Source of the DNA: Phoronis australis
Lineage: Eukaryota; Animalia; Phoronida
NCBI GenBank assembly: GCA_002633005.1
Contig: NMRA01000068.1
Span: 160,453-224,452, forward strand
DNA length: 64,000 bases
Direction of reading: 5' to 3'
Shown in pieces: positions 6,301 to 58,390 of the stretch. A model generated the notes under the pieces. That model made no database searches and was not told the origin of the DNA. It saw only the letters and a list, made by a program, of their open reading frames with translations. Position 1 is the first letter of the stretch, and each line of letters starts with the position of its first letter. A program made the translations under genes and the position numbers.

Positions 6301-7407
6301 TTTTTTTGTAGCATTTATTATTGATGTGCTCAATCCATTATGGATAATATTTTCATTATTTCTTTCACCTGCTTTGTTGAGTTGTTGGCAAGACTTCTTT
6401 ATTTCATTGCTTATAACTTTTGCAACACATTTTTAGTATAAATATGGTTAAGCCATCGATGGTAGTATTTCAATGATTAACATCAGACTTGCTGGTTCAT
6501 TTAATTCACCTCTTGAATGACTGCCGGTATGGATGATTGGGCATCATTGTAAGGTATGTGCTAGTATGGATGAAATACTGACTACATTGTAGGTTGGCCA
6601 TCCTCATATCGTAGATGCCAGTATGGGTGAAATACTGACTACATTGTAGGTTGGCCATCATCATGTTGTATTTGCTAGTATGGATGAAATACTGACTACA
6701 TTGTAGGTTGGCCATCATCATATTGTATATTCTAGTATGGATGAAATACTGACTACATTGTAGGTTGGTCATCATCATATCGTAGATGCCAGTATGGATG
6801 AAGAGTCCTGTTGCCCAGTCAGGTAATACTCTTTATGTCATGATCTTGTGAACTCGTGTGTAATTTGCTAGTTTGACTAGCATTATCACGGTCACCATTT
6901 ATTTGATGGCTTCACCCAATGGTAATGTAGAAATTTCTGTCTGTATATTGCAATTTTTGCTATTAAGTTTCTCCAGTACAGAGCTTTGTGAAATTTGGCA
7001 AACAAGTTTATGTGAAAGAAATGACAACACCTGCCCAGTTTCAGATCAATTCAGCCATTTTTGTTATTTTCGTGTTTTTTGGCATTTGGCACGTGTGCTT
7101 ACTTGCAAGCTGCTTATTGTTGAAATGATCTAACACGATTTTTCCTAAACATTTTGTGCATTCATTAATTGCATTAAATTTATGTTAACTGTGTTTCAGT
7201 TTAATACTTGGAGTTTGTCAAGATGGAAAGATAACGATCACAAAACTGCACGGCTCTGGTAGCTTAGATCCCAGGAGTATTTCGGAAATGTACGAGACAG
7301 GAAAGACTGTTGGAATACATCTTAATTCTGTGCTGTTACAAAAACTCATCGAAGAAGATAAATTAAAAGATACAAGATCTAAAACTGGGTTTTTGGCATC
7401 AAGTTGA
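302..7407 (+). CDS. EXOSC7: Exosome complex component RRP42 (5'-partial, 7 coding exons visible)
   Basis: Exons read with GT-AG boundaries and consistent phase: 302-403 (DNLRSDGRSCEDYRPVELETDVV..GSARVRL), 651-745 (NTDVLVGIKA..EGRLEFFVDC), 1288-1447 (SANATPAFEGRGG..CWLLYVDIV), 5101-5171 (LLECGGNLFDAVSLAVKAAL), 5573-5696 (IPNV..ELSDDPFDCKRLSVDNAP), 6764-6822 (VGHHHIVDASMDEESC), 7200-7407 (..GSLDPRSISEMYETGK..KTGFLASS*). Matches remembered RRP42 sequence throughout; AATAAA at 7559-7564. Confidence 0.95.
938..1085. repeat. About 40-bp intronic tandem repeat
   Basis: TAGCTCTGCATATCGCCACCAG..GAGTTT, about 4 copies. Confidence 0.75.
4283..4847. mobile_element. PIF/Harbinger-like MITE
   Basis: About 40-bp TIR GGGCTGTTCCAG..CTGGAACAGCCC with TAA on both sides; a partial second copy ends at 17378. 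Confidence 0.8.
5310..5501 (-). mobile_element. Penelope-like element fragment (GIY-YIG endonuclease C-terminus)
   Basis: AKILGKERNWHAQKIKESIKIRIQRPLLNQDCG resembles the end of Penelope ORFs; lies in an EXOSC7 intron. Confidence 0.7.
6527..6802 (+). repeat. 57-bp tandem repeat spanning an EXOSC7 splice acceptor
   Basis: Acceptor-like TTGTAG|GTTGG ending at 6592, 6649, 6706 and 6763; the last is the real exon start. Confidence 0.9.
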
Positions 7408-16500: not shown

Positions 16501-19500
16501 TAAGCACACATTTTTCTGAAGTCTTCCAAAGATCATCCAAAGATGTACTGATTTTAAACAACAGTTTCCGATCAAGTTGCTTAGTTGAGTCTTTAGAAAC
16601 GTTTGGCAGGAAAGGGTTGAATTGTTGATAATTCTCAGATACTGAATACCCATGGTCAAATAACTCGGGCTTAAAATTTAGCAATCTCTTTGCTCCTGTT
16701 GGCGTCCTAGAAACAGATGTTGAATCAATTAGTACAGGTTTCTGTCGATCTTCAGACTGAGCAATGAGAATGCTGACATCCCATTCTTGCGGATTTCTGC
16801 AGCTGTGTGTCCAGCAAATCATTGTTAAATTGAATGTAAACGAGTTCAAAAAAATCCAAGTAACTCTGCTTTAATGCAGCTTTTTAAACTTTGTGTGCGT
16901 GGGAGTCGGAGTACAAGAGTTTGCCACATAAAATGCATGTCTTTGACTTCGCGATTTTCAGTGGACTATTATAGTTCACCATCTGAAATTAAATATACGT
17001 AAATAGCAAAGGCTNTTCGTGGAGACAGTTTGAGATTCATAGATCTTTATAATTGAAAAAATGTTCATTGAAATTATAGACACATGGTGAACAGAGACAC
17101 CTGGTGGCTGCCAAAAGTATTGCTCACAGGCTTCTTTAGTTTTTGACAATATTGGACAAGACAACTAGTTCCTGTCTGTCAATCATCCAAGTTCTTAACA
17201 GGACGGTCCTCCTGGAGGCAATTTGTTTGCAAGTGTTAGATTTTATATTTTAACCTATTAAAATAATTTAAAAAATTATGGGTCATGGGTTGGAGAAATA
17301 AATGAAAAATATGGGCGGTGGGTAAGAAATAAAAGTGCCTTCCCCCCCCCTCCCATACAGATTTTGCTGGAACAGCCCTAATTCTTTTTATGGTGGCGAC
17401 AGGACTTTTATCATTCCCCTTGACCACAAGTCATAAAATGAGGGACATAGTGGTCAACATGCACATGCAAGGTATCAGCAATGGAACATAAATTAACAGG
17501 TGTGCACCACCATATTAAACAATTACCAAGTACCAAAACCGGCAAACTAAAGACCCTTCTACATCAACTGTCAGATATTTTTGATACAACATCAAGAATC
17601 ATGTATTCTTAACAACTCAAAGGTATCTTGGTCTTGACAATTGCTTACACAAGATTCTACAAAGCTCTAAAATGAAAAAGCTCTCCAAGTCAAGCTGTCC
17701 TTGTATTAAAATTGACTGCAATCTTTTATTGATTATAATTTAAACAAAGTGACTGGTGCAGGTGTAAAGTGCGCTGCCAGTGTTAAGTTATCTCATTCCC
17801 CCAAAACATGCGACTGACCTGGGTTTGAGACAAGTTTCCGTGAAGTTCACCGACTCTAATCCCGAGTAGTCCTAATAAGATGTGCAGCCTGTGAGCTTGT
17901 ACTTTAGTCTGAATAAAGATCATGCACTTTGACTGGAATGTGCGGCTTACCAAAGCTGAAAATTTGAAAAATCGAATGGTTATATCTGCGACAGACTATT
18001 AGAATCGAATCCATTTCCGTTGTTGTATCTGTTAGAAATTAGACAATTGTTATAAAAAAATATTTGCAGGAATCCATCATGGCTGCTACTGGCAGTAAGA
18101 AGGGGAAAGTAGAGAGATAATGATAAGTCGCATTTAGACATTAACTTTTGGCACGGCGCAACTGACACGGAGTAATATTGATCAGTGTCAAGCGTTCGTT
18201 TACACACATACTCACTAACTGTGGCAAGACGGAAATTGTAGGCTGGAGAGAGGGCTACACATGCGCAGGTTTATGAATGACAGGAGTTGAAGAGACAGAG
18301 AACCTGCATTTAGGTCATTACACAAGCACAGTAGAGATGATCCTTTCCACCTTGCCCCAGTTTCGTGTTTAGACACATAATTGACACGGAGCTAGATGTT
18401 CTAGCGCAAATTGCTCTACCTCACAAACGGGTGGCAAAAGTTGTCACCGCGGTGTCAATTTGCTCCAGTTCAGTCCCGTTTACACACATACTTGTGCTAG
18501 AACAACTCGTTTCGTGTCAGCTGATCCGTGTCAACTTTTGTAACTGTAAACGGCACTATAGGTGGAGTAGAGCTACAGACAATGGGACTGGAGGAGACAC
18601 TACACTGTCTAATTGCTGTATTCAAGAGAGCATCAGCAGCACAAGTATACACAAGTTGTTAGTGGGTAGTTGCAGAACTAAGGATCAACACAAGTAATTA
18701 TACACAGGTTGTTACTGGGTAGTGGCAGAACTAAGGACCAACACAAGTATTCACAGGTTGTTAGTGGGTAGTGGCAGAACTAAGGACCAACACAAGTATA
18801 CACTGGTTGTTACTGGGTAGTGGCAGAACTAAGGATCAACACAAGTATACACAGGTTGTTACTGGGTAGTGGCAGAGCTAAGGAGCAACACAAGTATACA
18901 CAGGTTATTACTGAGTAGTGGCAGAACTAAGGACCAACATAAGTATACACAGGTTGTTAGTGGGTAGTGGCAGAACTAAGGATCAACACAAGTATACACT
19001 GGTTGTTAGTGGGTAGTGGCAGAACTAAGGACCAACAGAAGTATACACAGGTTGTTACTAGGTAGTGGCAGAACTAAGGATCAACACAAGTATACACAGG
19101 TTATTACTGAGTAGTAGCAGAACTAAAGACCAACATAAGTATACACAGGTTGTTACTGAGTAGTGGCAGAACTAAGGACCAACACAAGTATACACAGGTT
19201 GTTAGTGGGTAGCGACAGAACTAAGGACCAACACAAGTATACACTGATTGTTAGTGGGTACCGACAGAACTTAGGACCAACACAAGTATACAGTATAAAA
19301 AGGTTGTTAGTGGGTAGTGGCAGAACTAAGGACCAACACAAAATAAGACTGATAAAAAATTGACTGAAGAAAAATTGGATAAATATTGCCATATAATCCA
19401 GGTGCGAATGAGATTATTTCTGACTGGTCATCAAAGCAATAACAAATAACCAACAGCAGAAGAACGCGGACATTCTCTAGACCTGACACATGATTAGGGC

Positions 19501-31500: not shown

Positions 31501-34500
31501 AATTCAAACGTTTTCAATCTACAAAGTGGGCACTTTTGCCGTCTTTCCGGGGAATCTTGAAGTTAGGAGGGCAAATATTGCCCATTTGGGACACACTCTG
31601 ACCTTGACTAAGATTTTTCACTGTCCTAAATTGGAAAACTTTTCCTGTAACCTTAAAAAGATACTGGCAGCATTCATACTAAAAAACTACACTACCACAA
31701 AATTATGCCCTGGAATATTCTACTTGCAACTTCAATGCAATGCTTTTATCATTACCGATAACTAAGACCAATACTTACCACCTCAGTGAAGTTAAAATCA
31801 TCATTGAAATCTTCATGCTTTCTAGTATTAGCACGTTTCTTCTTTCGTTTTACTGGCAACGGCTGGAAAGATAGTAGACCAGTTAGCTAACAATGAATGA
31901 CTTGTCGTCATTCATACAGTGTAAGGCACCCGGACACTTGCAGGATTAAGCAATGCACATAGCACGGAAATCATTTTTTTGGGATTGAGTCAGAGTGAAA
32001 TGCATGAACTGTGCGGGAGTGAACGCTAAATCGCAGAATTTTGAAGTTACGTTAAAAATTTGGCACACATTGATTTGTGAGTCAAGCGTGTATTGTTCGT
32101 GAACAAGTCATGAGGTGTGCCGTCAATGCTCATCACTTCGCGTCATGGTATCAATGTTCACATCCAGGCCCTGATAAAGGCATGCACACTACACAGCATT
32201 TTGTGTGTAACAACATGCCACTCTGCTCTATTTCTGTGGCAAACAGTGCCGACATTATTTACAAAAAGTGCGCAGATACAACGTAAACACGAACCCTATG
32301 AACTGGCACATATGGCCACAACAAACAGCGGTGCCAGTGCATGCCAAACATTGTGCAAGCATCAGGATGCCTCTATTACAACCTACTCTTTCCCAGTGCT
32401 TTTCATTTATGAACAGCTAAGGAAGCAACATTAAGACACTCCGATTAGCTGATGCCCAGAAATGCACCAGAATACAGCTCTATCTATTGAGAAATGCACT
32501 TGCGGCATGCTACTGACCAACAACAAGATTGAGGTTAAACTAAAGAACTGAGTACAGGTTCATGCTTCTAACAATGTAATAAGGCATCAAACAACATAAC
32601 AAAACAGCTCACAAAACTACAGTGAAAAATCACCCTGACAAGTCTTGAACCCATGACCTCTTTCTTCAAAGCAATCGGCCAAAGATCAATTGCCCTTAGG
32701 GGGCACCGAACATTCATATGTTACATCATCCAAAATTTCTACTTTTCAAATCCCCCCCTCCCCGGTGCAGGTTGCTGCCAACCGCTGCTAATTTAAGCTT
32801 TCAGTGCAGTGATAGACTGAAGATTAGTTCCACCCTATCACTTTATTAATCTCGACCGTATGTTCACAAGTCAACTCAAACAGAACGTCAGATGTAATGT
32901 CTGTGCTATGCTCCAGAGGAGGCAGTGTGGCCTGGTTGATAAGTGCCCACTTTCTCATTACTCGAAGTCGTAGGTTCAAGTCCCACCAGGTCACACTGCT
33001 AAACCCTTGAGCCAGGTTTCTAGCTCCTCAGCTCGGTTTTAACCATATATTAATAAAGCATAAAACTATTTCCAGGTGATCAGTGCAATGGGCCCACATG
33101 CGAGGCCTGCGCACGTCTGGTACAATGTGTATCAGACAGCCTGCAATTATTTTTTTTATATGCTCCAGCCAGTGAAGCGAAGCCTTGATGTATGATGAAC
33201 TTTTAAGACACTTGGAGCAACTGTTAATTCAATAATCTGCTGTCTTTATAGCTAGCTCTCTGTTGACTAACACTGTAACTGACAATTCTTTTTACAGCAA
33301 CTCGACTACAATTTAACCGTAAATTTCAACTCTTAACTGTCACTAATCTGTCACGATCTGTGTATGTGTCTAATACTCATAAACGCTCTCTGTTGGATAG
33401 TCGACACGTCCCAATAGAGTTTATCCCTGACAACTTAGGTGAGGAGGGGTTTGCATTAATTATATGTAATCCCGAGTTGGCGGATGTCTCGTGTATGGAA
33501 AACTGTTTTCAAATCTCCATAGATAGGGATGATCAAACCCCTTGTGTTGCGAGAGTATTGTCGATAGTTAAGGATACTTTGATTGCAAGCAGAGGGAGGA
33601 CACAAATCTGACTTTCTTATTTGACTGGCTAGATAATGGTGTTGAACCTTCACAATTCCGCTTATTTATCGCCAGCGCTACGGCCAAAACCTATTGGCTC
33701 AATAGGGAGCGGTTTGTTGTGTCTAATAACTTATTATATTGGAAGGCTACAGATGTGGAAAATACTCTAAAATTAGCAGATATTATAAAGCATGGTCATG
33801 ACTTACCCTCAGCAGGTCATCATTGACCGTACCAAAGCAAAGTTAAAAAATAAGTATTATTGGCGTGGTGTGGCCACTAGTGTTAAATCTTATATTGAAA
33901 CATGCCGGCTGTAATTTAAATAAGCAAGGTAGAGGCCGCCATGGTAAGTTTCCCTTAACCACATTTCATGAAGGGCTACCCATGGAACGTGTCCATCAAG
34001 ATTTCTTGGGTCCACTTCCTGTATCATATCAGGGCAACGAGTATATCCTCATGATGATAGACCAGTTTACCAAGTGGGTGGAGTGTGTAGCCCTCCCGTC
34101 GCAGATGGCAGAGGTCACGGTGAACACTGCAGTGGGCCAGTTCTTTTGTAGACTTGGGTTACCATTGCAAGTGTTTACCGATCAGGGACAAAATTTTGAA
34201 AGTCACGTGTTGCGTTACATCTGTTCCCTTCTAAAAATTCAGAAAACAAGAACGACTGCATATAGGCCCTCTTCAAATGGACAATGTGAGCATTTCAATC
34301 GAACCCTGATGGATGCAATACGTTGTTATGTCAGTCGTTTCCAAACTGATTGGGATATGTATTTACCCCAGATCGCTGGTGTTATCCGTTCTTGTGTTAA
34401 TCGTTACACTGGCTTTACAGCTAATAAAATGATGCTGGGTCGGGAAATAATTCAGCCAGTAGACCTCATGTATCTACCGCCCTTACAGGATGCTGAGGAC

Positions 34501-37500
34501 CCAATAGGTTATGTAAACCGGCTCAGTAAAGCGATTACTCAGACTCACGAGATAGCTAGAGGAACATTGCAGACTACCCAAGCTATTATGAAACGTGATT
34601 ACGATGTGTCTATGGTCAGACGTTCATATAAAGTTGGAGATTTAGTCTATGTCCTTGATTCAGCTACTGTCAAGGGGAAGTGTAAGAAACTATTACCCCC
34701 TTGGAAAGGGCCGGCCATTGTTCTCGAGGTCAATACTCATCATCTTTTCCGAATTAGACACAAGAATTTTGTGTCGGTAGTCAATCATGACCGTCTAAAA
34801 CTCTGTAAGGATAGGTTTCGAGACCTGCCAATCTGGCTTAAGAGAATGATCCAGGTAAATTCCACAGTGAACCCGGATAGCCTAGCAGAAGGCACTGAAG
34901 TATACTGTTTTTGTAGGAGACCTGATCATGGCGGGTCAATGATTGCTTGTGACGCATGTGATGAGTGGTATCATGGGGAATGTGTAAGCATTACCACTGA
35001 TGACGCACTGCACATTGACAGGTACATCTGTCCTAGTTGTGAATAACATTCACTTTGCAATATTTCAGATGTTTCGATGTACAAATGTACGACTGAAGAC
35101 AAATCCGGACTTGCCTTGCATTACGGATGTCCCAAGTGAGCGGGAGGACTCTACGCAGCCACCGCCTCAACCAAGAGAGCAAGACCAAACCCCGGTGCAA
35201 GAGGTGTCCACCGTAGCAGTAAATACGGGGGAATCGGACATCCACGAGTCAGTTTTAGACGACGACCCGATCGTAACTGTCACACCCTCACGCCCTATTA
35301 CTGTAAATGTGCCCCTGTCAACCCCCGCAGATTTTCTGGCCAGTCCCCCATCCCATATGATGGTAGATTCTGCGGTAGTCTCAACAGGTTCCCCAACTAC
35401 GCCGCTGGCTTTGATTGGAGAGTCTATTTGGGCCCTTCCCGAATACTCCCACGGAGTGCAGATGGCAGAAGTTTTATTACAGCCCACTGACCAGTATCAG
35501 TGTCCCCTGTGTCCTTTTACCGTTCCCCTCGGTGAAGATGAACATCTATGTAAACATATTTTCACTCGTCATCTTCCACCGTTATTTTCGACTAATCAGG
35601 CTGATGTGGTTGCCAGCCCTCAGCTTCATCGAGAGCGATACGAGTCTCTAGCTTATCTTTTTTCCTTGTTGGAGGGACGTAGCATGAAGGACTCGCTGGA
35701 TCCGCTGGATCTTGCGGGGCCTGAGCCAGCTGCCACGGGTACTACCCCTTGATCAGATGGCGAAGTCAGTTATGACTACCACATTTGACTGGGACCGAGT
35801 TCATAGTTTAACTTTAACACCCAGACTCAACTCGCCAGCCGCTTGCTTCCACTGGTATGTGATCACTCTACTGCTCCAGAAATTACCAGAGAGTGACCGT
35901 GCCCGATGGTTTCTGAGTGCCCATAGTGTGAGGCTTCCTCAGTCCTTCCTTGACTCCTCGGCCAGAGAGGTCGGGCCCTCGTCCTTTACAACCCCCAGGC
36001 CTCAGACCTCTACTTTAGCCCTTTCACCCCCCAAAAGATCTCGGACCTATGCCCAGGTTGCCTCCTGCACTGAGGCTCAACCTGTAGGGAGGAGGGGAAT
36101 GTTGTAATCGGCAACATCATTGGCCCTTTGTTTTTCCTGTGGTGTCTTGTGATTGGTGTTCCACATATGTCCCTTAAATAAGTCATTGGCGCCACTGTCA
36201 GATGGGTTTTTTCATGTTTGTGCAGCTTGGCGTCAACTAGGACAGACTTAACCATTCTCAAAAGAAAGTACTCTTCTCGTGCCTAACTAGTGAACCTGTA
36301 GGAATACAACATACGCATAAGCGTCGCGTTTCAACGGCCATTGTTGTGAATGTTGGTTTGTATGGTCTCGTCTTTTGTGTTGTCTCGTGTGTTCGTGTTT
36401 GTTCGGGGATTTCCGTGAGTGGCCGGATGTTGGGAGATCTAGAATTAGCACGTGACTGGGGAATGATGGGAGCTCTGGTCCTGTGACATGCAGGACGTCT
36501 GCGTTTGGCTCGCAAGATTAAGTGTGTATTCAAGGTTCCATATGAGTAAAGGTAAGCTGCACGCGAACCTGTATTGAATTACAACATTTGGCGTAGTCGG
36601 CTACGTGCAGTTTCCACCTTTGCACTGAGTGGCAATTTAAATTTTCGCAAATTATTTTACTCTTGTCATTCGGTACCACCCGTGTCGTAACAGGTTGGTA
36701 ACTGAAAACGTGTGTTCAGTTGTTAAGTTTTTTCATCTCCGCCTGAATTAAATATTTGGTGGTCAGCTCTATGTCATATTTATTTTTTGTGTTATTTGGT
36801 ATTGTTTTCAAGTTCAGTCTTTTCAGACCTGCATTTAATTAGTGCCACAACCTTTGTGGTACCATAACATGGCGTCCAAGATTCTAATCAATTCTTGTGA
36901 CGCTACATCACTGTTAGACCTTCCGGGTATGACTACTGATGTTGCTGCTGCAGTTATCGACTTCAGGGCAGTATCAGCGATTACTCCGGATAATGTAACT
37001 AAAATACATTCTGCTTGGAAGCCGACCAAAATGATGCAGAAACATATAGACTTCTCCATCCCGTCTGGTCTGCCGGAAGATTTGGTGAAAGTTGCAGAAG
37101 TGGTCGACAATTATGGTAAGCAAACACCGTCGAAAATTGTTTCAGCTCCTGCTTTTTTTCCAAAATTAGCAGCTAAGTTTACCCCGTCCAAGGCCAGTAT
37201 TGCTAGTGGTGGTGCTTATGAGAAAACAACCTCATCGCCGCATTTTAGCACATGGTCTAAGCCGTAGGGGTCATCAACTTATTGCCTACAACGTGCTCCA
37301 CGCAACCTAACTTTCAGTGGCAAACTAAGCACATGGGAAAATTTCTTGTGGAAGTTTGAAAATGTAGCCAAGGATAACTGTTGGTCTAGTCAGAAGTGTC
37401 GCACTGAATTAGGTATGTGCTTAGAAGGAGATGCTTCTCGTTGGTTCGCCAACCATATTAGGTCTTTTCCAGATGCTTCTTACAAGCAAATCATCAAAGA

Positions 37501-40500
37501 TATGATATATCGCTTTGGTGCAAATATCGAGTGTAATGAAGTACACCAGCTTAGATTCCAGTCAGCCAAACAAGCTCCTGATGAGTTGCTTGAGCAACGG
37601 GCTGACCGTTTAACCAGCTTATTCTTATTAGCTTTTCCAGATGCTAGGGACTCTGACAAAGCTCAGGCTGTCCTTCGTTTCTGTTTGGGTTTGAGGGATA
37701 AAGATGTTGCTCAGTGGACAATAAATAGTAAATCGGAGTCAGTCATAGAGGCTTTGAATGCCACACGATGGTTTTCAACCACCAAAGACCTTATGACACC
37801 GTCAAGACCGACCAAAGCTGTTTCTTTCTGTAGAGAAACCTTTTCAGACGAAGGTGAGGAAGAAGTTTCGGTTCGTCAGTTAAGTAAGAAACCCACTCTT
37901 AAGTTCACTCCTTGTGGCTCTTTAGAGTCTCGTTTAGATGTTCTTGAGGGTAGGTGTAATGACTTAGATGCATCAGTTTCTTTCCTTAAGACTGATAACG
38001 CTAAGCTTCATAAGAAGATAGACGGGTTGAAATCTGACCTGTCTGAATCTCATGCTGAAGTATCAAGCAATTTTAGTAAGTTGTTTGCAATGCTACAGAC
38101 ACAGTCGCGAAGCAACCTTCTCCGCCTTCACCAAGAGCTTCACCAGATTCATCTCCTGGAAGATCCTCTAATCTTCCCAGGTGTTTCAGGTGCGGTAAGT
38201 TGGGGCATTACCAGTCGAGTTGTAGGAGTTCTCCAGTGGCGGCTCGACGTATGTTCCTCAGTGACGGAGATTTAAACAAGTAGGGACTGGGGGACAAGGT
38301 CTAACCCCAGTTCGTACCAAGTCCAAAGACCTCCCTGATAGCAAGAAAATAGTTGGTCTGTTGGGTTATATGAAGAAACACATGCGTAATTCTTCAATTG
38401 CAGTTCAGTTACTAGTTCAGTCGTTAAAACTAAGACTGCTGAATCGTTTCCTCAGACCGCTAATGAGTTCTCTGTGACTTCAGTTGAAGATGATAACATG
38501 GTATCTAATCCAGTCCATAGCATTGAAGTTCCAGACTTATCAGCTGTTAATATTAGATCTGACTCATTAATCATTCAGACTGTTGCAGGTACTGTTTCAC
38601 AGAATGTCCCTCCAACTCCAAGGGGGATGCCTCAACCTGAAATCATTCCAGATGCGACAATGGGTGGGAACATCTGTGTCTCTCCTGTAGTTTCAGTTGG
38701 TGAGTCCGTTCCAGAGACCGTAAAAATTAAGAAGAGTGCATCGGGAAGTATGTACTACTTACCTGTAACAATTAATGCTACCTTAATCGATGCTGTTATC
38801 GACTGTGGAGCAGATAGTACCATTATCTCTCATCGATTGTTTAAGCTGCTAGAAGGTGTGTCTTTCTCACATTACATTGATGTGCATACGGCTGGTGAAG
38901 ACCTCTCTATGAAAGGTTTTCGGACACATCCTGTCACTGTGTCGATCAGTGACCAGAGTTACAAATCTTCGATAGTTGTGGCTAACATTAATGATGATTG
39001 TCTTCTTAGTCTTGATTTAATGAAGCAGTTAAATGTAGTAATTGATATGAAGTCGGATTCCATAACGTTCGCTAATGAGACGTTAGTTATGAATTATGGA
39101 GTTCCTTCCAAGTACCAGCCCACAGTTTGACTTTCCAAAAGTATTATTATTCCTGCAAATACAGTTAAGCGTGTGGAGTGCATTGATGTTCCAATTTGTG
39201 TTCCAACAGTAATATTTGAACCAAGCTTTACCGTGGATCCTAGGGTAATGATACCTCGTTCACTACTTAACACCGTTACCTCCCCAGTTTTATACATGTT
39301 TAATTCTTCGGAGCATAGTGTCAGGTCGAAAACTGGTTCAACATTGGGCTATTTAGATTGCATAGAAGAGTGTGAAGTGGACTCATTGGATCTGGCATCT
39401 GATGGAAGAAGCAGTACAGTCGTCAAGCAATTGTCTGCCGGTTCCAGTATGACTTCTGAAGGTACAAGGCCATTGGTGGCATTACCCGAAAAGGTAGACG
39501 ATTTATATAATAAGTCAAAAAATTTATTGACTGAAGCACAATCAAAGTTGCATCAGTTATTGCGAAATTATGCAGACGTTTTTGCAACGGACAACCTAGA
39601 TCTTGGTAACTTTACTGCAGTTGACCACGCGATTGACACAGGCGATGCTCAACCTATCAAAATGGCCATGCGACGGACACCAAGTTGTTTCGTGGCAGAA
39701 GAGGAGGGTCACCTTAACAAAATGCTTAAAGCTGGTGTCATTGTTCCTTCATCTAGTGAATGGGCCGCAACTCCTGTTCTGCTTCGTAAGAAAACAAGAC
39801 GGGTCAGTTCGTTACTGCATTGATTATAGGAAACTGAATGTCACTAGAAAAGATTCATGGCCTTTACCTCTCATTGATGAGTGTATTGACTTACTGTCTG
39901 GTAACAAGTGGTTCAGTAAGCTAGATGCCAATTCTGCATATTGGCAAGTTAAAATACATGAGGAAGACCGGAAAAAAAACGGCTTTTATAACCAAGTATG
40001 GGTTATTTGAGTTCAAATCCATGCCATTTGGACTCTGTGGTGCGCCTTCTACATTTTCAAGAGCAATGAGTTTAGTTCTTAGAGGTTTAAATTGGCACAC
40101 ATTTCTTGCATTCCTCGTTGATATCTTAGTACTGGGGTCAACCTTTGACGAGCACATTGCGAACCTGGAGGAAGTTTTTCAGAGATTCCGGAAGTTTCGA
40201 CTCAAATTGAAACCTAAAAAATGCCTCCTCTTCCAGCAACGGGTTGAGTTCTTAGGGAGATGGGTAGGACCATGTGGCTTGGAGATGGGGGATGAAAAAA
40301 AAAACATCGAAAAAGTTAAAAATTGGCCGGTTCCTCGTAGTAAGAAGCAATGTCAGAGCTTCCTTGGGTTTGCAAACTATCACAGGATCTTCATTAAAGA
40401 TTTTGCTGAGATTGCAGTTCCCTTATACAAAGTCACTGGAGCTTCTCTTTTCGTATGGTCAGATGAACAGCAGGTGGCATTTGACAAGTTGAAAGAAGCG

Positions 40501-43500
40501 CTAACATCACCTTCAGTTCTGACTTTGCCGAATTGCTCGGATGAATTTGTGCTAGATTGTGATGTGTCCGACCTGGCAATTGGAGCCAGTCTGTATCAGG
40601 TCTAAAATGGCATAGAACGCGTAATATCTTATGCTAGTTTTGCCCTGGTGGATGAGCATAAGCGTTATTGTACCACGTGTAAGGAATTGCTGGCTGTCGT
40701 TCGTTTTACACACCATTATAGGCACTATCTACTCGGATGACAATTTCGTGTTCGTACCGATCACAACAGCCTCACATGGTTAATGAACTTCAAATCCCCT
40801 AGTGGTCAAATTGCTCCTTGGCTATTGCAGCTACAATTTCCTGGGATGAAGATTGAATACCGTCCGGGCGCAAAACACGTGAACGCAGATGCGCTCTCGC
40901 GTATCCCTGTGGACACGTGAAACAATTATACCTTGGGTGTTCAGCCAAGCGATCCTTGTGGTGGTTGCAGTACGTGCTGGAAATCACATAACGACCAGCA
41001 CAAGTTTTCATCTGAGGTGAACGATTCAACGTCACTTGCATTCTTCCCCAAGGTAGACAAATGTGTTGGCACTAGGCAAGTGACTACGAATCCCAACTCC
41101 AACCCTAGAACAGTAACTAAGTCACTTTTTCCGTGTGACCTTGAAGAGACAGATTTGGCACTGTCCATTACAGCTTCAGATTGTGAGGATAATGTAAAGT
41201 TTGATCTTAAGCCTGATGGTTGTTTTATTTACAACAGTACAACACCTCTAAGTGTTCATTTGAATGTTTTGAATATTTCAGCTAAACAGGTTGCAGATCC
41301 TGATCTTTCTTTCATTATTAATTGGTTCAATAATAGTATAGTGCCATCTGATCATGATTTATTTCTAGCCAGCCCAGCTGCCAAGTTCTACTGGATTAAC
41401 AAAGACTGTTTTCAACGTCGGGATGATATTGTCTACTGGAAACGTCCAGAAGATAATAAGCTGTTAACAGTAGTTCCTGCTGATTTGAAAGGGGCTGTAC
41501 TAGAAATGTGTCATGTTATTCCTTCAGCAGCCCACCAAGGTATTGCTCGTACCAAACTCAAGATCAAGAGTAAGCACTTTTGGTATGGGTTGACCAAAGA
41601 TGTGCAGCTGTTCATCGCATCGTGTTCCGCATGTAACAAGAATAAGCAGGGAACAAGACATGGTCGGTCTCCTATGATTCGTTTTCATGCTGGAGCACCG
41701 ATGGAGCGGGTACACATCGACTTTCTTGGTCCACTACCTGCATCTCCACGTGGTAACCAACATGTGTTGATGATAGTGGATCAATTTACTAAGTGGGTGG
41801 AATGCATTCCCCTACCTTCTCAAACTACAGAAGTATCGGCTACAGCTGTCATTAATGAATTCTTTGCTCGTTTCGGATATCCCTTCCAGATTTTCTCTGA
41901 TCAAGGGAGAAATTTCGAAAGCAATTTATTCCGTGCTGAGTGTGAGCTTTTGCACATCCATAAGGCACATACAACTCCGTATAGACCCTCTGCAAATGGT
42001 CAAGTTGAGCGTTACAATAGAACCCTTACGGATGCGGTAAGATGCTATGTAACTTCCAGATGGATTGGGATCTATACATTCCTCAAATCGCTCACGCGAT
42101 CCGTTCATCAGTAAATCGCCATACAGGTTTGACACCAAATATGATGATGTTGGGTCGTGAGGTCACTCAGCCGGTAGATCTCATGTTTCCTCCACCGTCT
42201 GGTGCTGACAATGACTCTCCGTCAGGGTATGTAGTTAAACTTCGCGCGGCTATTTCAAAAGCACATGAAACTGCACGTAGTGTTCTACAAACTAGTCAAT
42301 CTTCCATGAAGAAAGATTATGACCCATCTGTTTTTAAACATGTTTTTAAGGCAGGCGATCTGGTGTTTATCTTAGACTCTGCTTCAACTAAGGGCGTGTG
42401 TAAAAAATTGTCGTCTCCCTGGAGGGGACCTGGTATTATTATTGAAGTTCTAACACCAGCTCTGTACAGAGTTCGTGTGAAGAATACTGTCTCAGTTATT
42501 CACCATGATCGTATTAAACTGTGTAAAACTCGTCATGCTGACCTACCTGCTTGGCTTCAGCGGATAATGAATGTAGTTAACCAGATTCCTAACACTGACG
42601 ATCAGTTGTATTGTGTGTGTCGTCAGCCTGACCATGGTGGCCTCATGATCCAGTGTGACTCTTGTGACGATTGGTTTCATGGGGAATGTGTTAGTGTTAC
42701 GGCTGATGATGCATGTGATATGGATGATTACTGGTGTCCTCGGTGCAAGCTCTAACTTTTCTTTTTGTTGCAGAAGTTGTGTTCTCTTGTACGGATGTCC
42801 GGCTAAAAACCAACATGGACCTTTCACGGGTGACCTTCTCCGAAGGGGTCCCATGACGTGCAACAGTCTTCTGCTGTGTCTGATAAGACACCTGCGTCTT
42901 CGGAACCTATGGATGCGAGTGATGCTTCTGGCACCCCTGCCGTGTCAGAGGATGTTACTCCATGTGATCATTCCAGTGATGTCTCATTAACGTCACCTGC
43001 TCCAGTTCACAAGAAACCAATCAAGCCAGTTCCTAAAAAAGGGAACCGTGAACGAGGAAAGTTCGCTTGTCCCCTCTGTGGTTTAGTCGCCACGGGTGAA
43101 ATTCTACGGGAGCACAGCTTGACAAACCACCTACCATCAGTGTTCAATGTTGACTCTGTTCAGCGCTTGTCATCTTCCACTCTTCAGTGTGCACGGTTTC
43201 AGGCACTGAAGTCCATTTTCTTGCAAATTGAGGGAAGGGAACTTCAGCTTTATGAAGATATTCTAGACCTTGCAGGCCTGGCAATGAGAAGCGTGCTCCA
43301 CGTTCCTCCTGTAACCATGGAAGACGAACTTCAAGTAACGATCTCCTGTAAAGTTCTGGGTGGCCTACACCTTCAGGCCCTTTTGTTCTCTGTGGGAGGT
43401 TGATCAACCTGAGTCTCTGCATGCACTGGTTCGTAGTGTTGCAGTTGATGGCGAGAGTCCCCGAGCCGAATCGCTCTGTGTGGGCATTGTCTTTTGACAA

Positions 43501-46500
43501 CGGACCATGTGGCATTCCACCTGCACCTATGCCATCCAGCTTTCAGAGGCTCATAGTTTCGTCGATATCGTTGGGACCTCTCCAGTTGGTACCTCCTCAA
43601 CCAGTGTCATCGTCGGCATCTTCAACCCCCACCTTGGAAGGGGCAATCGACTCGCATTTTTATATGTATCGTCTAACATCGGCTTATCGGTCCAAAGGTA
43701 ACGTCTGCGGAAGCTGTATGCTGTCCGTTGCAGATCTTCTAGCAACCAAGCTCCACAGAGTACCTTACCTTCTAGTCAAGCTGTTGGGCGGTGTTCTTGT
43801 ATTTTGTGACCCAACCGAGTACTCCTGTCATCCACTCAAGGAGTACCTAAAAGCTCTTCCCCGGGGGTTCAAGGCAGTCATTGGTGTGCATCCGAAACAG
43901 GAATCCAACTTTTCGGGTAATGCTAGGATTACCTTGTTCCGTCTCTTGCGGGAATCTGAAGTTGCCGGTCTGGGGGAGATCCGGTTTGAACAAGCCTTGG
44001 GAAAGGAAAAGCATCAGCGCCGGTTTGTGGAAGGCCTGATTTCGGAGTTCGCCAGCCTTGGACGTCGTCATAAGAGTGTTCGCGACAAGGTGGTGGTTCT
44101 TCACATCAGGGCAGCGTCACCATGCTCAAATTATGAGTGGGGTTTCCACACTGCTTTCGACATTCTTAGAGAGCAGCTATCTAGATTCCAAAGGATCCAT
44201 CTTCACACCTTCACTGATGATTCCGTGGCAGTGAGTAACTTCCACCGTGAGTTCCCGAACTGCTACTTCGGGTTCTCTGGTATTTGTAACACATTTACTC
44301 GCTGGCAAGTCCAAGCGTTACGGGAGGTGCCCGAAGACCGTCTTCTGTTGGAGACTGATTCGCCTCACCTGTCCTTGCGCGAGCGACCTAACTATCCACA
44401 GTTTATTGGAGAAGTTGCTGAAGTAGCTGCCAAACATCGTGACGTTTCGGTGGCTCAGATCCTCCAGCAGACCACTCGGAACGCTCAGCGCCTCTACAGA
44501 CTTTAGATCTGGGATTAGTAGCATAGTAGTGTATTTACATTAAATTTATATTTCGTTTCAGTGAAAATTATTAGACTGTTCCAGGGATGCTCGTTCACGG
44601 GTAGGTCTGTTCAGCTTCTGTTATATGATCATTAAAAAAAAGAAATTTTGAGAATCCTACTATGCTACCTTGTTGTTTATTGTTGTTCGTTACTATATGT
44701 TTTGTGTTTGTTACTTTTTCATATGGTAGTTTATTTTTCTAAATAGTATATTTTTCTAGTAAACTTTATAACATCTTTTTCTAGTCAACAGATATTTCAT
44801 TTTTTTGTAAATTGTGACCAGTATTTTTCAAATAGCCCCAGTCACGTACTTCTGTGAAGAATTTAGTTTTTTTAATGTAAATCCGGCCATTTAAAATTTA
44901 GTTCATAGTATTTTTCCTAGGGTAATTCATAATCTGTTATTTCTAGTATGTTAGATGTTGGTCAATTCTTCTTGTTTCTTCATTTAAGGGGGGGGGGGTA
45001 AAGGTTGAGTAGTATGTCTTTTTTCAGTAAGGTTTTTGTAATATTTCTCTATTTAGGGAGGGGAGGAATGTTGTGAATGTTGGTTTGTACGGTATCGTCT
45101 TTTGTGTTGTCTCGTGTGTTCGTGTTTGTTCGGGGATTTCCGTGAGTGGCCAGATGTTGGGAGATCTAGAATTAGCACGCGACTGGGGAGCTCCGTCTTC
45201 GTCTGGTCCTGCGACATGCAGGACGTCTGCGTTTGGCTCGCAAGATTAAGTGTGTATTCAAGCTTCCATATGAGTAAAGGTAAGCTGCACGCAAACCTGT
45301 ATTGAATTACAACACCATTTTCTTGTTAACTGCTCATCCAAGTTTTCTGATTTTTGCACCATTTGATTTCTCACACCAAGGACTTTTCAAAAATGTATGA
45401 CACATGGGTATTGTAAAAAAAATTAAAAAACGTCCTTCCTACTAGTTAGTGAACCTGTAGTAATGCAACACGCGCAGGAATAATGTTGTAATCGGCAACA
45501 TCATTGGCCCTTTGTTTTTCCTGTGGCGTCTTGTGATTGGTCTGTTTTTGTGTGTTCCCCGTATGTTCCCTATATAAGTCGTTGGCGCCACTGTCAGATG
45601 TTTTTTTTTTCAAGAACCGGCAAGACAAGTCATCCATGGTTGTCCCGCTTGGCGTCAACTGACCGACTTATCTCTTCATAGAAGAAAGCACTCTTGTGCC
45701 TAACTAGTGAACCTGTAGGAATACAACATTCAGACAAGTCATCCATGGTTGTCCCGCTTGGCATCAACTGACCGACTTATTTCTTCATAGAAGTAAGTAC
45801 TCTTGTGAACCTGTAGGAATACAACATTTGGCGTAGTCGGCACTAGTTAGGAGTATCATAAGAGTATTTGACCGACTAGTTCAGACGGCTTTTACCTGTC
45901 CAGGGCTTTTTCTTTCGTCCGGGGGGGAAAGTTGGAGAATTTAGTTGGTGCCGTGCTAACAGGTGGTTAGTACGGTAGCCAAGGGGTTCTTGGTCTTTAG
46001 GTAGAGTTGGTTTTAGGTTGTTTGGGCCTTATTTTTGGGTTTTTGAGGTTTATTTTTGGGTTTTTGGTATTTTTGGGTTTAGTTGCTGGTTCGAAGTGGG
46101 TGTGGTTCCCTTTTGACTTAAGTCACGTGGTAGGCAGTGTTTTGGTTAAAAACACCGATTCATTCCCTTACCTTTAGCCCTTCTGTACCGGATATATATT
46201 GGCCGTTGATAGTTAACCATGTCAGTAGGTTTCAAAATTCCTATTAACTACTGCCGTGAGTCAGACTTGTTAGATTTGCCGGGAGTTGACGAAGATATCG
46301 TCCTGCAAATAGTTGACTTCCGGGAGAGGTGTCCTATCAGTCGTCACAATATTTACCAGATATCTGACAATTGGATAGTGACCAGCGTGGTGACTGACCG
46401 GGTGGATTATTCCTTAACCCCCAGTTCAGGTTCCCGAAACTCTGATTTGCCGGCGGGGTTACCTCAAGTGGCTGAATAGGTCCCCTAGTCCTGAATTGGG

Positions 46501-49500
46501 TAGAACCACTAGGTACCGAGGGGGCTCCCGATACCAAGTCGATGAGGGTAGACGAGACAGTGGCATAAGTCCTGGCGTCCTCCTCCTAGTAGACGAAGAG
46601 GGTATTCGGGAAACATAGGAGGTAGGTGTGACAGCGGTCTGGATCCCGACACTTTTACTTCTCCTGTTCGCCCAAGGGGGTACTGGGAAAATAGAGAGGG
46701 AAGGCGCGACAGAGGCGGAAGTCCCGGCCCAAGAAATGCCAGGGAGTATAAAGTGGATTCGCATGCTCCTCAACATTTAGTTCTCAAGGGCTTGCGAAAT
46801 ACCTGCAAAGATTTCCACTGGAAGTTTAGCCGTTTTGCTAGGGAAAACTTCTGGTCTGGGGATAACTGTTTAGCAGAGCTAAGTCTTTGCAGTGAAGGGG
46901 ATGCACTCTGCATTCTTTGTAATTTTACAGAAAGTCGGCCAGAGGCATTGTATGACGAAGTAGTGGAAGCAATGAGGAAACGTTTTGGAGTTGCTTCGGG
47001 GGTGCCAGGAGTAGACCAACTACAATTTCACTCCACATCCCGAAAACAGGCCGAGTCCTTACATCAATGGGCTGACAGGCTGAATCATCTGTATTTTTCG
47101 GCCTTTCCAAACCCCTCAGATGGTGACTGCCATCAAGCCATACTCCGGTTTTGTTTGGGGTTAAGTGATCAGGATATAGGCAAGCAGGTGTTAAATGATC
47201 GTCCCGAATCCATAGACCAAGCACTGGTTCTAGCCGTGTGGATCTCTACGACGAAGGGCCTAATGCCATCGCGTAAGAGTGTTACCTTTAGGGGAGATGA
47301 ACTGAGCGAGGATGTTAGTAGGCTACGTCTCGTCTCTAGTCAAAAAAGGTCACCCATTAGGTTTTCGCCAATTTCGGGTCGCCAATCCCCACCTGATTCC
47401 CCCAACAGTTCTCCCAGGTCTAGCAACTTGGCAGAAAGGTACAGAGTGTTAGAGTCACGGTTAGATTTTTTGACAGAGGATAATAAAGCTCTGCATAAAC
47501 AAATGGACAATCTGTCCAAAGAAATGAACCAAAATTTCTCTAAAGTTGAAGGTCGTTTTTCTAAAATAGACACCAATTTAGAGAAAATGCTGGGTTTATT
47601 AGCCTCGGGCCGGGCGTCTCCTAAAAAATCTCCGTCCAGATCACCCAGCAATTCTCCCCGAAGAGTCGGAGAGTGTTTCAAGTGTGGGGAGACTGGTCAT
47701 TTTAAACATCCATGCCCCAATAAACCATCGGCCAATGTCAGACTAGCCTCAACGTCTCCAGATAGTTTAAACTGGAACGGACTGAAGGACTAGGTCTAAA
47801 TGCAGTCCATGATTCCCAATCAGGCCTGCCCAAAGACTATTCAACTCTGATTGGTTTGGTGGGAGGGATCAAAAAGCAGTTAAAACGTGCAAATAAAAAA
47901 TCTAAGAAAACGATTCGTTCCACGGGGGTTGGGACAGATTCTGAAGATTCTTTCTCACTAGCAGATTCCGACAGTGATTCTAATCCGGGTTCTCTTGCTA
48001 GTAAGGATACGTTGACTGTAGATCCACCTATCAAGTCAGATGTAGATCGAGCGCCGGAGGTAGTAAACATATGTAAACTATCTTCAAGTCGTACGTATTA
48101 TATTACCATAGAGTTGAAGGGTTCGAGGATAAATAGTATCCTGGATAGTGGTGCCGACAGTACTGTAATTTCTACCAGGGTATCTAAATTTCTCTCGGGT
48201 GTCCAAGCCGTGCACGATGTAAAGGTGACAACGGCCGCAGAAGGTCTGGCTCTTTGGGGGTTCAGAACCAATAACATTCCCATTACTATTAATTCCAAAA
48301 CATATCGAACCTCAGTGGTAGTTTCGGATATTCAGGATGATTGCCTCTTGGGGTTAGATATCATGAAACAATTGGGATGTGTTCTGAACATGAAAGAGGA
48401 TAAACTGACTATTGAGGGGAGAACAATTCCAATGGAATACGGTATCCCATCCACATATCTTCCTCGAGTGGTAGTGAACTCAAATGTTTTAATTCCTGCC
48501 AATACGGTGAAGAGGTTAAGTGGGATTGAATTTCCAAAGATTTCCCCCATGGTTATGTTTGATCCGTCTCAATCTTTAGATCCACGTATTTCAATCCCCC
48601 GCTCAATACATGACCCCCAATCCTGTTCTTCCCTTTTTGTTTTCAATTCATCGGAACATGGGTTGAGATTAACAGGAGGGACTATCTTAGGTGTAGTGGA
48701 ACCCGTGGAATCTGAAGGGGTAAAAGATACTCAGGTTCGGGAACAGTGCTCAGTTAAGGTAGCTAAGGTAAAGGAAACTCCTTGGGGTGTTGAGACACTG
48801 TCGGAGAGATTACCAAGGCGAACTCCTGGGAATGTTAATGCACTGTCGGGAGGTTTACCAGAAAAGCTGACTTCGCTGTTTGACCAATCTTCAATTCATT
48901 TAAGTGAGGGGGAAAAGTCACAGTTGAAGCTATTGTTAGAATTTGAAGATTTGTTCGCTGCCAGTGATTTGGATCTAGGAAATTTTACGGCAGTAGAGCA
49001 TGTCATAGACACCGGGACAGCAAAATCTATTAAAATGGGTATGCGCCGGACGCCAACCTGTTTTGTGCAGAAAGAGGAGGATAACCTAAAGAAAATGTTA
49101 AATGCAAGAGTAATTGTCCCCTCTATGAGTGACTGGGCCGCAGCACCTGTGTTAATCCGCAAGGCTGACGGGACAGTGCGTTACTGTATTGACTACAGGG
49201 CGTTAAATAGTGTTACCCAAAAAGATGCATGGCCTTTACCATTAATTGAAGAATGTATAGACCTTCTTGCTGGCAATGTTTGGTTTAGTAAGTTAGATGC
49301 AAACTTATTGGCAAATCAAAATCAGTGAGGAGGACCGTAAAAAAAACTGTATTCATTACAAAATATGGTTTGTATGAGTTTAGCTCTATGCCTTTTGATT
49401 TATGTGGAGCTCCTAGTACATTTTCTCGGGCCATGAGTCTTGTTTTAAGAGGTTTGAACTGGAACACGGTATTGGCATTTCTAGACAACATATTAGTGTT

Positions 49501-52500
49501 GGGTACCAGTTTTGAGGACCACCGGTCTAATCTTACAGGCATTCTTGCTCGTTTTCAGGAGTTCGGCCCGAGATTGAAACCCAGAAAGTGTGCCCTGTTC
49601 CAAAAGAAAGTAGAATTTCTGGGTAGGACGGTGGGTCCGGAAGGGTTAGAGATGTGAAATGACAACATTAAGAAAGTCCAAGAATGGCCTATTCCCTACA
49701 GTAAGAAACAGTGTCAAAGTTTCTTGGGTTTCGCAAATTACCATAGGCTATTCATCAAAGATTTTGCAAAATTAGCTGTATCTCTTTATGAGATTACAGG
49801 GTCGAAGAAAACCTTTCAGTGGGACGATGCACAACAGAATGCTTTCGATCAATTAAAGGTAGCTCTAACATCACCACCTGTTTTAGCCTTACCGAACAAA
49901 AATGACGAATTTATTCTTGATTGTGACGTCTCTGATAAGGCTATTGGCTGTTGTCTTTCCCAAGTCCAGAACGGATTGGAGCGAGTTATCTCGTACTCCA
50001 GCTTCGCTTTAGTGGACGAACAAAAACGTTATTGTACTACTCGAAAGGAGCTGCTGGCTGTTGTACGATTTACACACCAGTTCAGACATTACCTCTTGGG
50101 TAGGAAATTTAAAGTACGGACGGATCACAGTAGTTTGAGATGGCTGTTAAACTTTAAATCTCCTTCGGGACAATTAGCTCGTTGGATATTACAGTTACAG
50201 CAGTTTTCGGGTATGGAAATAATATACCGTCCCGGAGTTAAACATATCAATGCTGATGCTCTGTCACGTATTCCTTCGTCCTCCTGCCCTGCTTACAAGC
50301 TAGGGGTAGAACTCAAAGACCTTCCTTGTGGGGGTTGTCCCACTTGTTGCAAATCTCATAATGAATGGTATAATTTCGTACAGGAAGTTGATGACACTCT
50401 TCCTCTTGCACAACGCCCCAAGGCAGCCATGGCTGACAAAAGTACCAGTACCCGTGCGCGATCTGTGTATGTGTCCGATACGCACAAACACTCGCTATCA
50501 AATACGCTGTGCTAACAACGTCATTGCGGAGGATAGTGGCTGCCACCATATATACACAAGCAGTACGCGGATGGAGTTTAAGGCTATACAACGTGCCCTA
50601 ACCAAGCTGTCACTCCTAGACCTGGAGAATCACACCATTATCTTTGCCACCGATTCCATGGCAGTGTTGATGAAAGTTCAATCTGGAAACCTCCCAGCCA
50701 ACTGGGGTGTCTTCCGATCACGCCACCCTCATCATGTGGTGATCTGGTCTTTCGTACTTGGCCACGCCGGTGTCTTGATTAATGAGTGTGCAGATTACCT
50801 CGCTGGCTCATGCACCACCAACCAACCCCTCTACTTATATTCGGCTGACGTTAAGCTGCTGGCTCGCAAACGCAACCTCGAGCAGACTGCATCCCAGCTG
50901 GCTGAGTTCAATGATGGCAGCCGCCTGCTCGAAGCTGGTATTATTTATGGCCATGCTGCGAAGAGTCACAAGAAGGGCCGTGCCCGAGTGCTGTCTAATC
51001 AAATGCTTACAGGCAACGTCAGCCCTGGAGTTTTGCGCCTTCTGCTGTCACGGGGATGGTCTGGGGAGGGGATTAATGCACCAGCATATCCCCAATGATC
51101 CTGTCCGGAACAGGTATTATTACAGGTATTATTACAAACACTCGCTGTTGGATAGTCAAAACGTCCCAGAAGAGTTTATCCCTGACAACTTTGGAGAGGA
51201 GGGGTTTGCATTAACTATATGTAATCCCGAGTTGACGGATGTCCGTTGTATGGAAGACTGTTTTCTAATCTCCATAGATAGGGATGATCGAAACCCTTGT
51301 TTTGCGAGAGCATTGTCGATAGAGGATGAAACAGACTTTGACCGCCAACAGAGAGAGGACACAAAACTGACTTTCCCATTTGACTGGTTAGATAATGGTG
51401 TTGAACCTTCACAATTCCGCTTGTTTATCGCCAGCGCTACGGCCAAAAACTATTGGCTCAATAGGGAGTGGTTTGTTGTGTCGAATAATTTATTATATTG
51501 GAAGGCTCCAGATGAGGAAGATATTCTAAAATTAGTAGTGCCGGAGTCTTGCAAATCAGATATTATAAAGCAATGTCATGACTTACCCTACGCAGGTCAC
51601 CAGGGAATTGACCGTACCAAAGCGAAGTTGAAAGCTAAGTATTATTGGTGTGGTATCGCCGCGAGTGTAAAATCTTATATTGAAACATGTGCTGGATGTA
51701 ATTTAAATAAACAAGGTATAGGCCGCCATGGTAAGTTTCCCTTAATTACATTCCATGCAGGGGTGCCCATGGAACGCGTCCATTTAGATTTCCTGGGTCC
51801 ACTCCCTGTATCCGATCAGGGCAATGAATATATCCTCATGATGGTAGACCAGTTCACCAAGTGGGTGGAATGTGTAGCCCTCCCGTCGCAGATGGCAGAG
51901 GCCACGGCGAACGCTGCAGTGGGCCAGTTCTACCCTCAGTCCTTCCTGGACTCCTCGTCCAGAGAGGTCGGGCCATCGTCCTTTACAACCCCCAGGCCTC
52001 AGACCTCTACTTTAGCCCCTTCACCCCCCAAAAGATCTTGGACCTATGCCCAGGTTGCCTCCTGCACTGAGGCTCAATCTATACCACTCCATCCTGTACC
52101 GCCCAAGTCCCCAGTGGAGCGGAAACAGGTTCGTCCAAAGCGGTTGGCACCGGCAACCACCTCCTCGGCGAAATTGCCCTCTTTGTATGGTCCACCGTCA
52201 ACCGCCAACCTGCAGCCTGCTGCATCAGCCCCAAAACCAGAGACAGTCGATTCGCATTTCCACCTAGATCAGCTGACCTTTGCTTGCCAACGTTTTTCCC
52301 CTGACTTGGCAGGCCGGCTGCTTACCATTCCTGAAATCACTAATATGACGGCAATGCTCCCTTGTCCCTCAAAAAATCCCGTCCATTTAACAGGGGGCAT
52401 AGCGGTATTTTGTGATCCTATTCATTACAAGTTTGTGGAGAAATCCACTGAGGCGTTCCGTCGGGCTAGAAGGCTGCAATTGGCATCCATCCAAAAAACA

Positions 52501-58044: not shown

Positions 58045-58390
58045 TGTATCTAACCAGCTAACCTCCTCACGCTAACACGAACCCTACCACATACCAAACC
58101 GCTACCAAACATGAAACATGTGGAGTACGGAACCCGGAAATTACGTTCAGAGGAGAATTCGGGAGAGTCATTAATAATAGAAATGCGACTAGATCAGTGT
58201 AATTGAAAAAAGTAAATGATAATTTCTTGCTATTTTGTTTCTCACACACAAGTCTAACACACTTTATTACTAGAAATTAATTCATAATCATTTTGGCGCG
58301 AAATTTATCGTGGTGATTTTGCACAACTTCCGGTCGTTGATCTCTCATTTTTCCATTTTCACAGTGTTTGAGAAGTGTTTGCTGAAAAGT
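58045..58390. promoter_or_regulatory. Putative bidirectional promoter DDX27/FEN1
   Basis: 346 bp between divergent ATGs; E2F-type site TTTTGGCGCGAAA at 58291-58303 and ETS-like ACTTCCGG near 58326. Confidence 0.65.

Follow-up and report, generated by a model that had tools for sequence, protein, structure and literature searches.

Integrases with a built-in chromatin reader are known for repressive marks. The closest described systems are the chromoviruses, Ty3/gypsy retrotransposons such as MAGGY whose integrase carries a C-terminal chromodomain (10.1101/2021.11.30.470311, available part). PHD fingers on transposons have likewise been published in general. According to the accessible parts of the sources, TE–PHD fusions were surveyed in 172 eukaryotes and PYGO-type PHDs were found on cnidarian retrotransposons (10.1101/2021.11.30.470311), the transposase of Ginger1-9_HM carries Ulp1 together with a PHD (PMC2836005), and PHDs also occur in Chlamys, CR1 (ORF1) and Rehavkus elements (PMC8557442). 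Gypsy-7a_cRei of Chlamydomonas encodes a Gag-Pol with a PHD, and its insertions are enriched in intergenic DNA (10.1101/2022.06.16.496473, available part). The targeting of active chromatin has been argued to be detrimental to a transposon (Grau-Bove et al., 10.1101/2021.11.30.470311, in the part available).

We analyzed 64,000 nucleotides of Phoronis australis contig NMRA01000068.1 (the window, meaning the whole stretch, in whose positions all coordinates are given) and compared its retrotransposons with these systems. What appears to be new is a clade with a PHD finger at the integrase end and a linked TatD-like ORF. As in the chromoviruses, a module of histone-reader type stands at the integrase C-terminus after a GPY/F-SH3-like part, with the same pol order; unlike in the chromoviruses, as far as the available descriptions go, the reader is a PHD of H3K4me3 class, the predicted target is active rather than repressed chromatin, and a TatD-like ORF is added. 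The PHD clade would function in the manner of a chromovirus without belonging to that group, and no chromo family was detected by Pfam in the 19 window proteins and 56 relatives scanned. A transposon-captured PHD, in some cases of an H3K4me-reading class, is shared with the fusions of Grau-Bove et al., Ginger1-9_HM and CR1, but as far as the available parts of those reports go, they differ in element class, in position or in PHD subfamily. The resemblance to Gypsy-7a_cRei lies in a gypsy pol PHD proposed to influence insertion; the green algal finger is located between RNase H and integrase, not C-terminally, and TatD is not mentioned in the available part of that report (10.1101/2022.06.16.496473). 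We found no publication on a clade with a C-terminal integrase PHD in marine invertebrates, which Repbase, subscription journals or the Grau-Bove supplement may list; the main text of De Mendoza 2018 does not contain "PHD", and a survey of mollusc LTR elements (PMC6238403) contains neither "PHD" nor "TatD".

Both families in the window are decayed Ty3/gypsy LTR retrotransposons, represented by three forward-strand copies, and all 28 tblastn matches of ten element frames fell within 33300–53700. Copy 1 (family A, 33354–36311; tblastn and LTR comparison) is 5'-truncated, starting in pol, and ends with a polypurine tract and the 3' LTR (36100–36311), without the TatD part. Copy 2 (family B, 36342–45314; LTR pair and Pfam) contains gag and PR-RT-RH-INT in several broken frames, with several stops and frame changes in pol, and has a primer-binding site, a purine tract and a 4-bp target duplication, CCAT; its LTRs (36342–36586 and 45069–45314) differ at 7 of 236 columns (0.03). 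The Pfam order of gag followed by PR-RT-RH-INT, running along 37268–42755, is also that of the relatives' whole pol proteins. Copy 3 (family A, 45484–56401; tblastn, Pfam and LTR comparison) consists of gag, a broken pol and a TatD part (52470–53117), has no target duplication, and lacks the integrase core and PHD, which an internal deletion at 51931/51934 has removed. Its 5' LTR (45484–45728) is followed, ahead of the primer site, by an incomplete tandem copy of the LTR's 3' portion (45735–45826). The 3' LTR (53435–53671) is completed by its last 7 bases at 56395–56401, behind an inserted 2.7-kb repeated element with imperfect inverted ends (53672–56394), relatives of which are transcribed in RNA run X7. 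In a three-way LTR comparison directed at a possible chimeric origin of copy 3, the numbers of unique sites were 11, 7 and 5 of 204. RNA reads covered family B at a depth of about 5 or less and came from both strands.

An RNase H-like frame at 50310–51098 was rejected as a second RNase H of the element, as 11-bp direct repeats flank it, it carries a short tandem tail, and copy 1 lacks it. At about 50498–51146, the pol of copy 3 contains an inserted LINE-like RNase H fragment flanked by these repeats. The two families have a common primer-binding site (36587–36600 and 45827–45841), which we take to match tRNA-Ser. The N-terminus of the copy 2 gag (36839–37267) shows a helix-hairpin-helix-like motif below the Pfam cut-off (HHH_3, 17.4 bits), and a similar gag start was seen by eye in two related loci, L003 and L005.

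The preliminary description had claimed that both families end pol in a PHD finger with the methyl-lysine cage of Cfp1, BPTF and DIDO, and had proposed a Pfam search and a structure model as checks. The motif was found as described, and the PHD scores of both families are far above chance. In copy 1, the finger (34903–35043, stop codon 35044–35046) matched PF00628 over its full length with 43 bits (E 4.5e-11, cut-off 24), and the family B finger (42609–42752), at the end of the frame 42021–42755, scored 39 bits (E 8.2e-10). The ligands of the family A finger are Cys4-His-Cys3, and its cage positions are Tyr 34903–34905, Met 34939–34941 and Trp 34966–34968, with an Asp at 34924. Among 59 PDB sequence matches, the highest-ranking were Cfp1 (9c0o), BPTF, PHF2, PHF8, DIDO and Spp1. 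Alignment with Cfp1, BPTF and PHF2 shows agreement at the Tyr that precedes the first Cys, at the Met three residues ahead of the third Cys and at the Trp two residues ahead of the His, and both window copies have Asp at the position of the DIDO His and the TAF3 Asp. The Tyr and Trp positions are, we assume, members of the methyl-lysine cage. In DIDO1 and TAF3, the Met forms the back face of the cage and an Asp or His occupies a further position at its side (PMC8246079, available part). The resemblance to the Cfp1/Spp1, BPTF, DIDO, PHF2 and TAF3 fingers thus includes the ligand pattern, the Tyr, Met and Trp positions and the Asp; unlike the Cfp1, BPTF, DIDO and TAF3 fingers, the one described here is fused to an integrase, and its likeness to them is known from sequence and model.

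The finger of copy 1 closes an open frame of 399 amino acids (33847–35046) in which Pfam, the model and a fold search place an integrase core (rve, 48.1 bits), a long helix, a GPY/F-SH3-like module and a linker of about 35 residues before the PHD. We modeled the last 200 residues from a 39-row alignment (mean pLDDT 89.1). In the model a long helix is followed by an SH3-like sheet, and a linker of lower confidence connects this part to a finger of PHD fold. Foldseek matched the finger to the structures of BPTF, DIDO, PPS and PHF2 solved with H3K4me3, at 1.0–1.4 Å over about 50 residues, and the part upstream of it to the PFV and Ty3 integrases. The linker between integrase and finger varies from 23 to 71 residues among the relatives, and this variability and the low model confidence are as expected of a tether. 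By its sequence and modeled fold the integrase-terminal finger is a genuine PHD of the H3K4me3-reader class, a statement about class rather than binding; we consider binding to H3K4me2/3 very probable.

To place the finger among related elements, we collected 18 relatives by a word search, those named being from Mytilus and Strongylocentrotus, and took the 150 best-ranked of the 363 proteins that a profile search found at E 1e-30; matching clusters were also present in the Atlas, most commonly from Mollusca. Together with two window rows these made 170 rows. The complete finger pattern was present in 57 of them, one of which (P0180) is not an element, and among these 57 the Trp was retained in 56, the Met in 51, Tyr or Phe in 54, and all three cage positions in 50. 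At the DNA level, a pattern that fixed the Trp, which is hence not counted, found the finger in 30 of 33 loci, with the Met in 30 and Tyr or Phe in 29. Since the search profile included the PHD and the scan pattern fixed the Trp, these counts are biased upward and favor intact fingers. Between the fingers of the two window families, 25 of 45 base differences fall on third codon positions. Classing of the 170 rows by HMM gave 71 with a whole or partial finger, 56 with a tail without a finger and 43 that were too short.

We computed two trees with the PHD excluded, both from relatives and window rows without named reference elements. In the first, a midpoint-rooted tree of 101 rows with FastTree local supports, from which short and unanchored rows were left out, 41 PHD and 6 PHD-less rows formed a clade at 0.999 and five PHD rows fell outside it. 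The second contained 21 long pol proteins and two unaltered window frames over 1038 columns, one window row being labeled by its element since its frame ends before the finger. Eleven PHD rows grouped together with support 1.0, and two PHD rows were placed among 10 PHD-less ones. As judged from these sequences, the finger marks an old Ty3/gypsy clade with mollusc and sea-urchin relatives.

The relatives without a PHD finger have other sequences at the integrase end. A tail motif of the form basic-Pro-x-x-Leu-x-Asp-Tyr was found in 23 of 56 PHD-less rows versus 2 of 69 PHD rows (windows of 45 and 120 residues), the tails in those 23 being an acidic stretch that ends in the basic motif (Thr-Arg-x-Gly-Arg ... 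Pro-x-x-Leu-x-Asp-Tyr). We presume a resemblance of such tails to nucleosome acidic-patch binders. One PHD-less relative (P0171) ends in a CW finger (residues 253–297, Pfam 48.9 bits), the CW finger being another H3K4me reader. Outside the main clade, the finger of P0144 stands at the integrase C-terminus with a different spacing, which we take to be ING-like. The CW finger and the differently spaced PHD, both in relatives outside the main clade, could possibly reflect repeated capture of H3K4me readers. The basic tails and the CW finger indicate that the integrase end holds alternative modules, an arrangement that fits a tethering role and is not proof of it.

The elements lie in the first intron of a DEAD-box helicase gene. 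The coding part of its exon 1 (57961–58044, reverse strand) was recognized by motifs and PDB matches, and we assume from the N-terminal motifs that the gene is DDX27/Drs1-like. By sequence reading, the exon 1 donor is at 57961 and exon 2 at about 31790–31863, with continuous reading phase. Head to head with the helicase lies FEN1, whose ATG is at 58391 and whose exon 1 coding part (58391–58474, forward strand) matched PDB FEN1 at E 5e-10; its RNA splice 58474>62399 was seen in 17 reads and a second splice in 15. The 346 bp between helicase exon 1 and the FEN1 ATG (58045–58390) form the divergent promoter region, with low opposite-strand RNA on either side, and presumably contain an E2F-like site at 58292 and an ETS-like site at 58326. 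The preliminary description had placed three PHD-element insertions in a first intron next to a bidirectional housekeeping promoter, and proposed a PHD-guided integrase targeting active-promoter chromatin. The intron and the head-to-head setting with FEN1 held, but the copies are now 1.6–25 kb from exon 1 (element bodies 4.3–25 kb) rather than directly beside the promoter, and the finger is kept in only copies 1 and 2, the third having lost integrase core and PHD alike.

We mapped the element junctions to the start of the host intron. Two with locus-specific host flank map 24 and 11 bp from the exon 1 donor: the first is a 29-bp family A LTR end (57908–57936, forward strand, 27 of 29 bases identical to the family A LTR end) and the second the 5' LTR of copy 3. 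The 3' LTR of copy 1 maps to +212, family B to about +185 and the 3' LTR of copy 3 to +1560; these three lie inside or map to a MITE-like repeat of high depth with short terminal inverted repeats (56423–57907). Run X1, from which the assembly may have been built, cannot serve as an independent check on it. About 200 bp of the intron start (57749–57949), consisting of repeat end, 29-bp LTR end and 13-bp host flank, recur as 45315–45483 together with 36312–36341 (15 of 169 columns different, divergence 0.089). We rejected the 29-bp LTR-like piece as a part of the high-copy repeat, as in the summed contigs the depth has dropped from about 5200 to roughly 100, and loose ends have become heterogeneous, before this piece is reached. 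As the high-depth repeat stops before the last 42 bases, the LTR end and the 13 bp of flank that are shared indicate that the segment was duplicated locally.

In the simplest history that we infer, family A inserted twice, at +24 and at +11, and a further insertion entered the repeat; the segment was then duplicated by unequal exchange, deletions followed, and family B inserted last. Copies 1 and 3 differ by 0.106 in the integrase and 0.088 in the LTR, close to the divergence of the duplicated segment, and may therefore descend in part from one insertion. The family B LTRs differ by so little that this copy probably arrived once the segment had already been duplicated, at a site over 12 kb away from the promoter. 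Given the segment duplication, the missing target duplication of copy 3 and the divergence of copies 1 and 3, the copies in the cluster do not count as independent promoter-proximal insertions.

In the mechanism that best explains the fusion of a PHD to a Ty3/gypsy integrase, the terminal finger would bind methylated H3K4 and would hold the integration complex at nucleosomes beside active promoters. We consider this tethering to promoter-proximal nucleosomes somewhat more probable than not as a whole, and we lean, by a similarly slight preference, toward use of the finger during integration with a promoter-proximal bias. The two junctions close to the exon 1 donor speak for such targeting; the youngest copy, family B, which probably inserted far from the promoter, speaks against it. 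In a genome with thousands of H3K4me3 promoters, moreover, the mark alone leaves repeated insertion at one of them unexplained. If true, promoter tethering by the finger would be a natural case of direct H3K4me3-guided integration, and an active-mark reader kept across molluscs and echinoderms would go against the published argument that active chromatin is a costly target. The sister families with and without the PHD permit a controlled comparison of insertion sites.

The most serious alternative, which we judge unlikely but well short of negligible, is that the finger reads H3K4me without promoter bias, as a general chromatin dock, at the element's own LTR promoter or in other marked chromatin, and that the cluster arose by nesting and rearrangement. 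The position of family B between two family A LTRs agrees with it, as do the three junctions within the repeat; with these junctions, and with a FEN1 intron 1 that is also rich in high-depth repeats, the region may simply tolerate insertions. The basic tail, which stands at the same place in PHD-less relatives, would fit a generic tether, and locus L003 adjoins an LTR to an element instead of a host flank. Against the absence of bias stand the junctions at 11 and 24 bp and the surroundings of L008, the sole related locus with a recognizable 3' LTR end and more than 1 kb of flank, where promoter-type motifs, which we take to be NRF1-like and YY1-like, occur 1.3 kb away. This pair was present in 1 of 31 loci scanned, a post-hoc case with an inferred LTR end, and the L008 flank is an anecdote. 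The ends of L003 (1–99 and 8831–8929) are identical, making it a circular contig, either a one-LTR circle or a collapsed tandem assembly.

Clearly less probable, and improbable in our view, is a finger whose ligand is not a histone, or which contributes to the structure of the integrase or the particle, its cage being kept for a methyl-lysine mimic. PHDs of H3K4me3 type do bind H3-mimic peptides in vitro (PMC8166343, available part), and PHF2–VRK1 structures were among the PDB and fold matches, but every feature compared matches histone readers and the variable, low-confidence linker is tether-like. That the PHD is a host exon or chance neighbor outside the element can be dismissed despite its 47–63% identity to host-type PHD fingers, since it is in frame with the integrase in two families only 57% identical over the 237 residues of their integrase C-terminal regions, lies inside the LTR-bounded copy 2 and ends the uninterrupted pol proteins of relatives.

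Besides the PHD finger of its integrase, the clade has a second distinguishing feature in the ORF that follows pol. In family B this ORF spans two frames (42834–44506) and encodes a C2H2-like motif followed by a TatD-like nuclease domain; in copy 1 its start (35065–35752) consists of an acceptor-like site, an ATG directly after it and the C2H2-like motif, with presumed splicing. Pfam found the TatD domain in both families (TatD_DNase, 96.8 bits in family B and 69.8 in family A, cut-off 27), the C2H2-like part is common to the ORFs of both (E 1e-12), and YcfH was a PDB match to the ORF (E 1.4e-10). The metal-binding Glu, His, His and Glu-Thr-Asp were invariant in 23 of 23 TatD-like rows; of the window copies, copy 3 retains the N-terminal His pair, which is altered in copy 2. 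Named relatives of the ORF came from Strongylocentrotus, Lytechinus, Haliotis and Tegillarca. Among the 14 of 33 clade loci with at least 2 kb after the finger, 11 had a same-strand TatD match starting 1.5–2.5 kb downstream of it, one of them weak (L002, L003, L005, L006, L008, L009, L010, L014, L021, L030 and L031). The 11 loci belong to four contig-name series and therefore do not represent as many separate genomes.

An acceptor-like site with an ATG within 100 bases after the finger was present in 18 of 33 loci compared with 17 of 194 controls, for a pattern chosen after inspection, and a stricter splice-acceptor pattern in 9 of 33 loci compared with 3 of 96 controls. Such sites suggest a spliced subgenomic RNA as for other ORF3s (PMC5408684, available part), from which we infer that the TatD-like ORF would be expressed. 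The closest parallel is in the bdelloid LTR elements Juno and Vesta, which carry an enzymatic ORF3, a DEDDy exonuclease or GDSL esterase (PMC5408684, available part). In both cases pol is followed by a gene that encodes an enzyme rather than an envelope protein and is of a kind usually expressed from spliced RNA; unlike that of Juno and Vesta, as far as that source describes them, the enzyme here is TatD-like with a C2H2-like N-terminal part and is linked to the PHD clade. The putative nuclease would perhaps trim or clear element DNA. Among the publications listed in our searches we found no retrotransposon paper about TatD, though Repbase or subscription journals may contain one, and a TatD-like ORF at the place of an envelope gene seems to be an accessory gene of a kind not described before. 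The full picture, of an old and widespread animal clade that mirrors the chromoviruses, with an integrase that reads H3K4me3 directly and delivers new copies to the first nucleosomes at active promoters, and with its own TatD gene in the envelope position, we put forward tentatively, as a possibility falling just short of probable.

Elsewhere in the window, tandem arrays with units of 49, 24 and 57 bases occupy 18549–19430, 9168–9453 and 6514–6802, respectively, and a pair of 220-base inverted repeats lies at 2365–2584 and 11639–11858. ARAGORN predicted a tRNA-Ala(AGC) at 13781–13855, which may be a gene or the head of a SINE.
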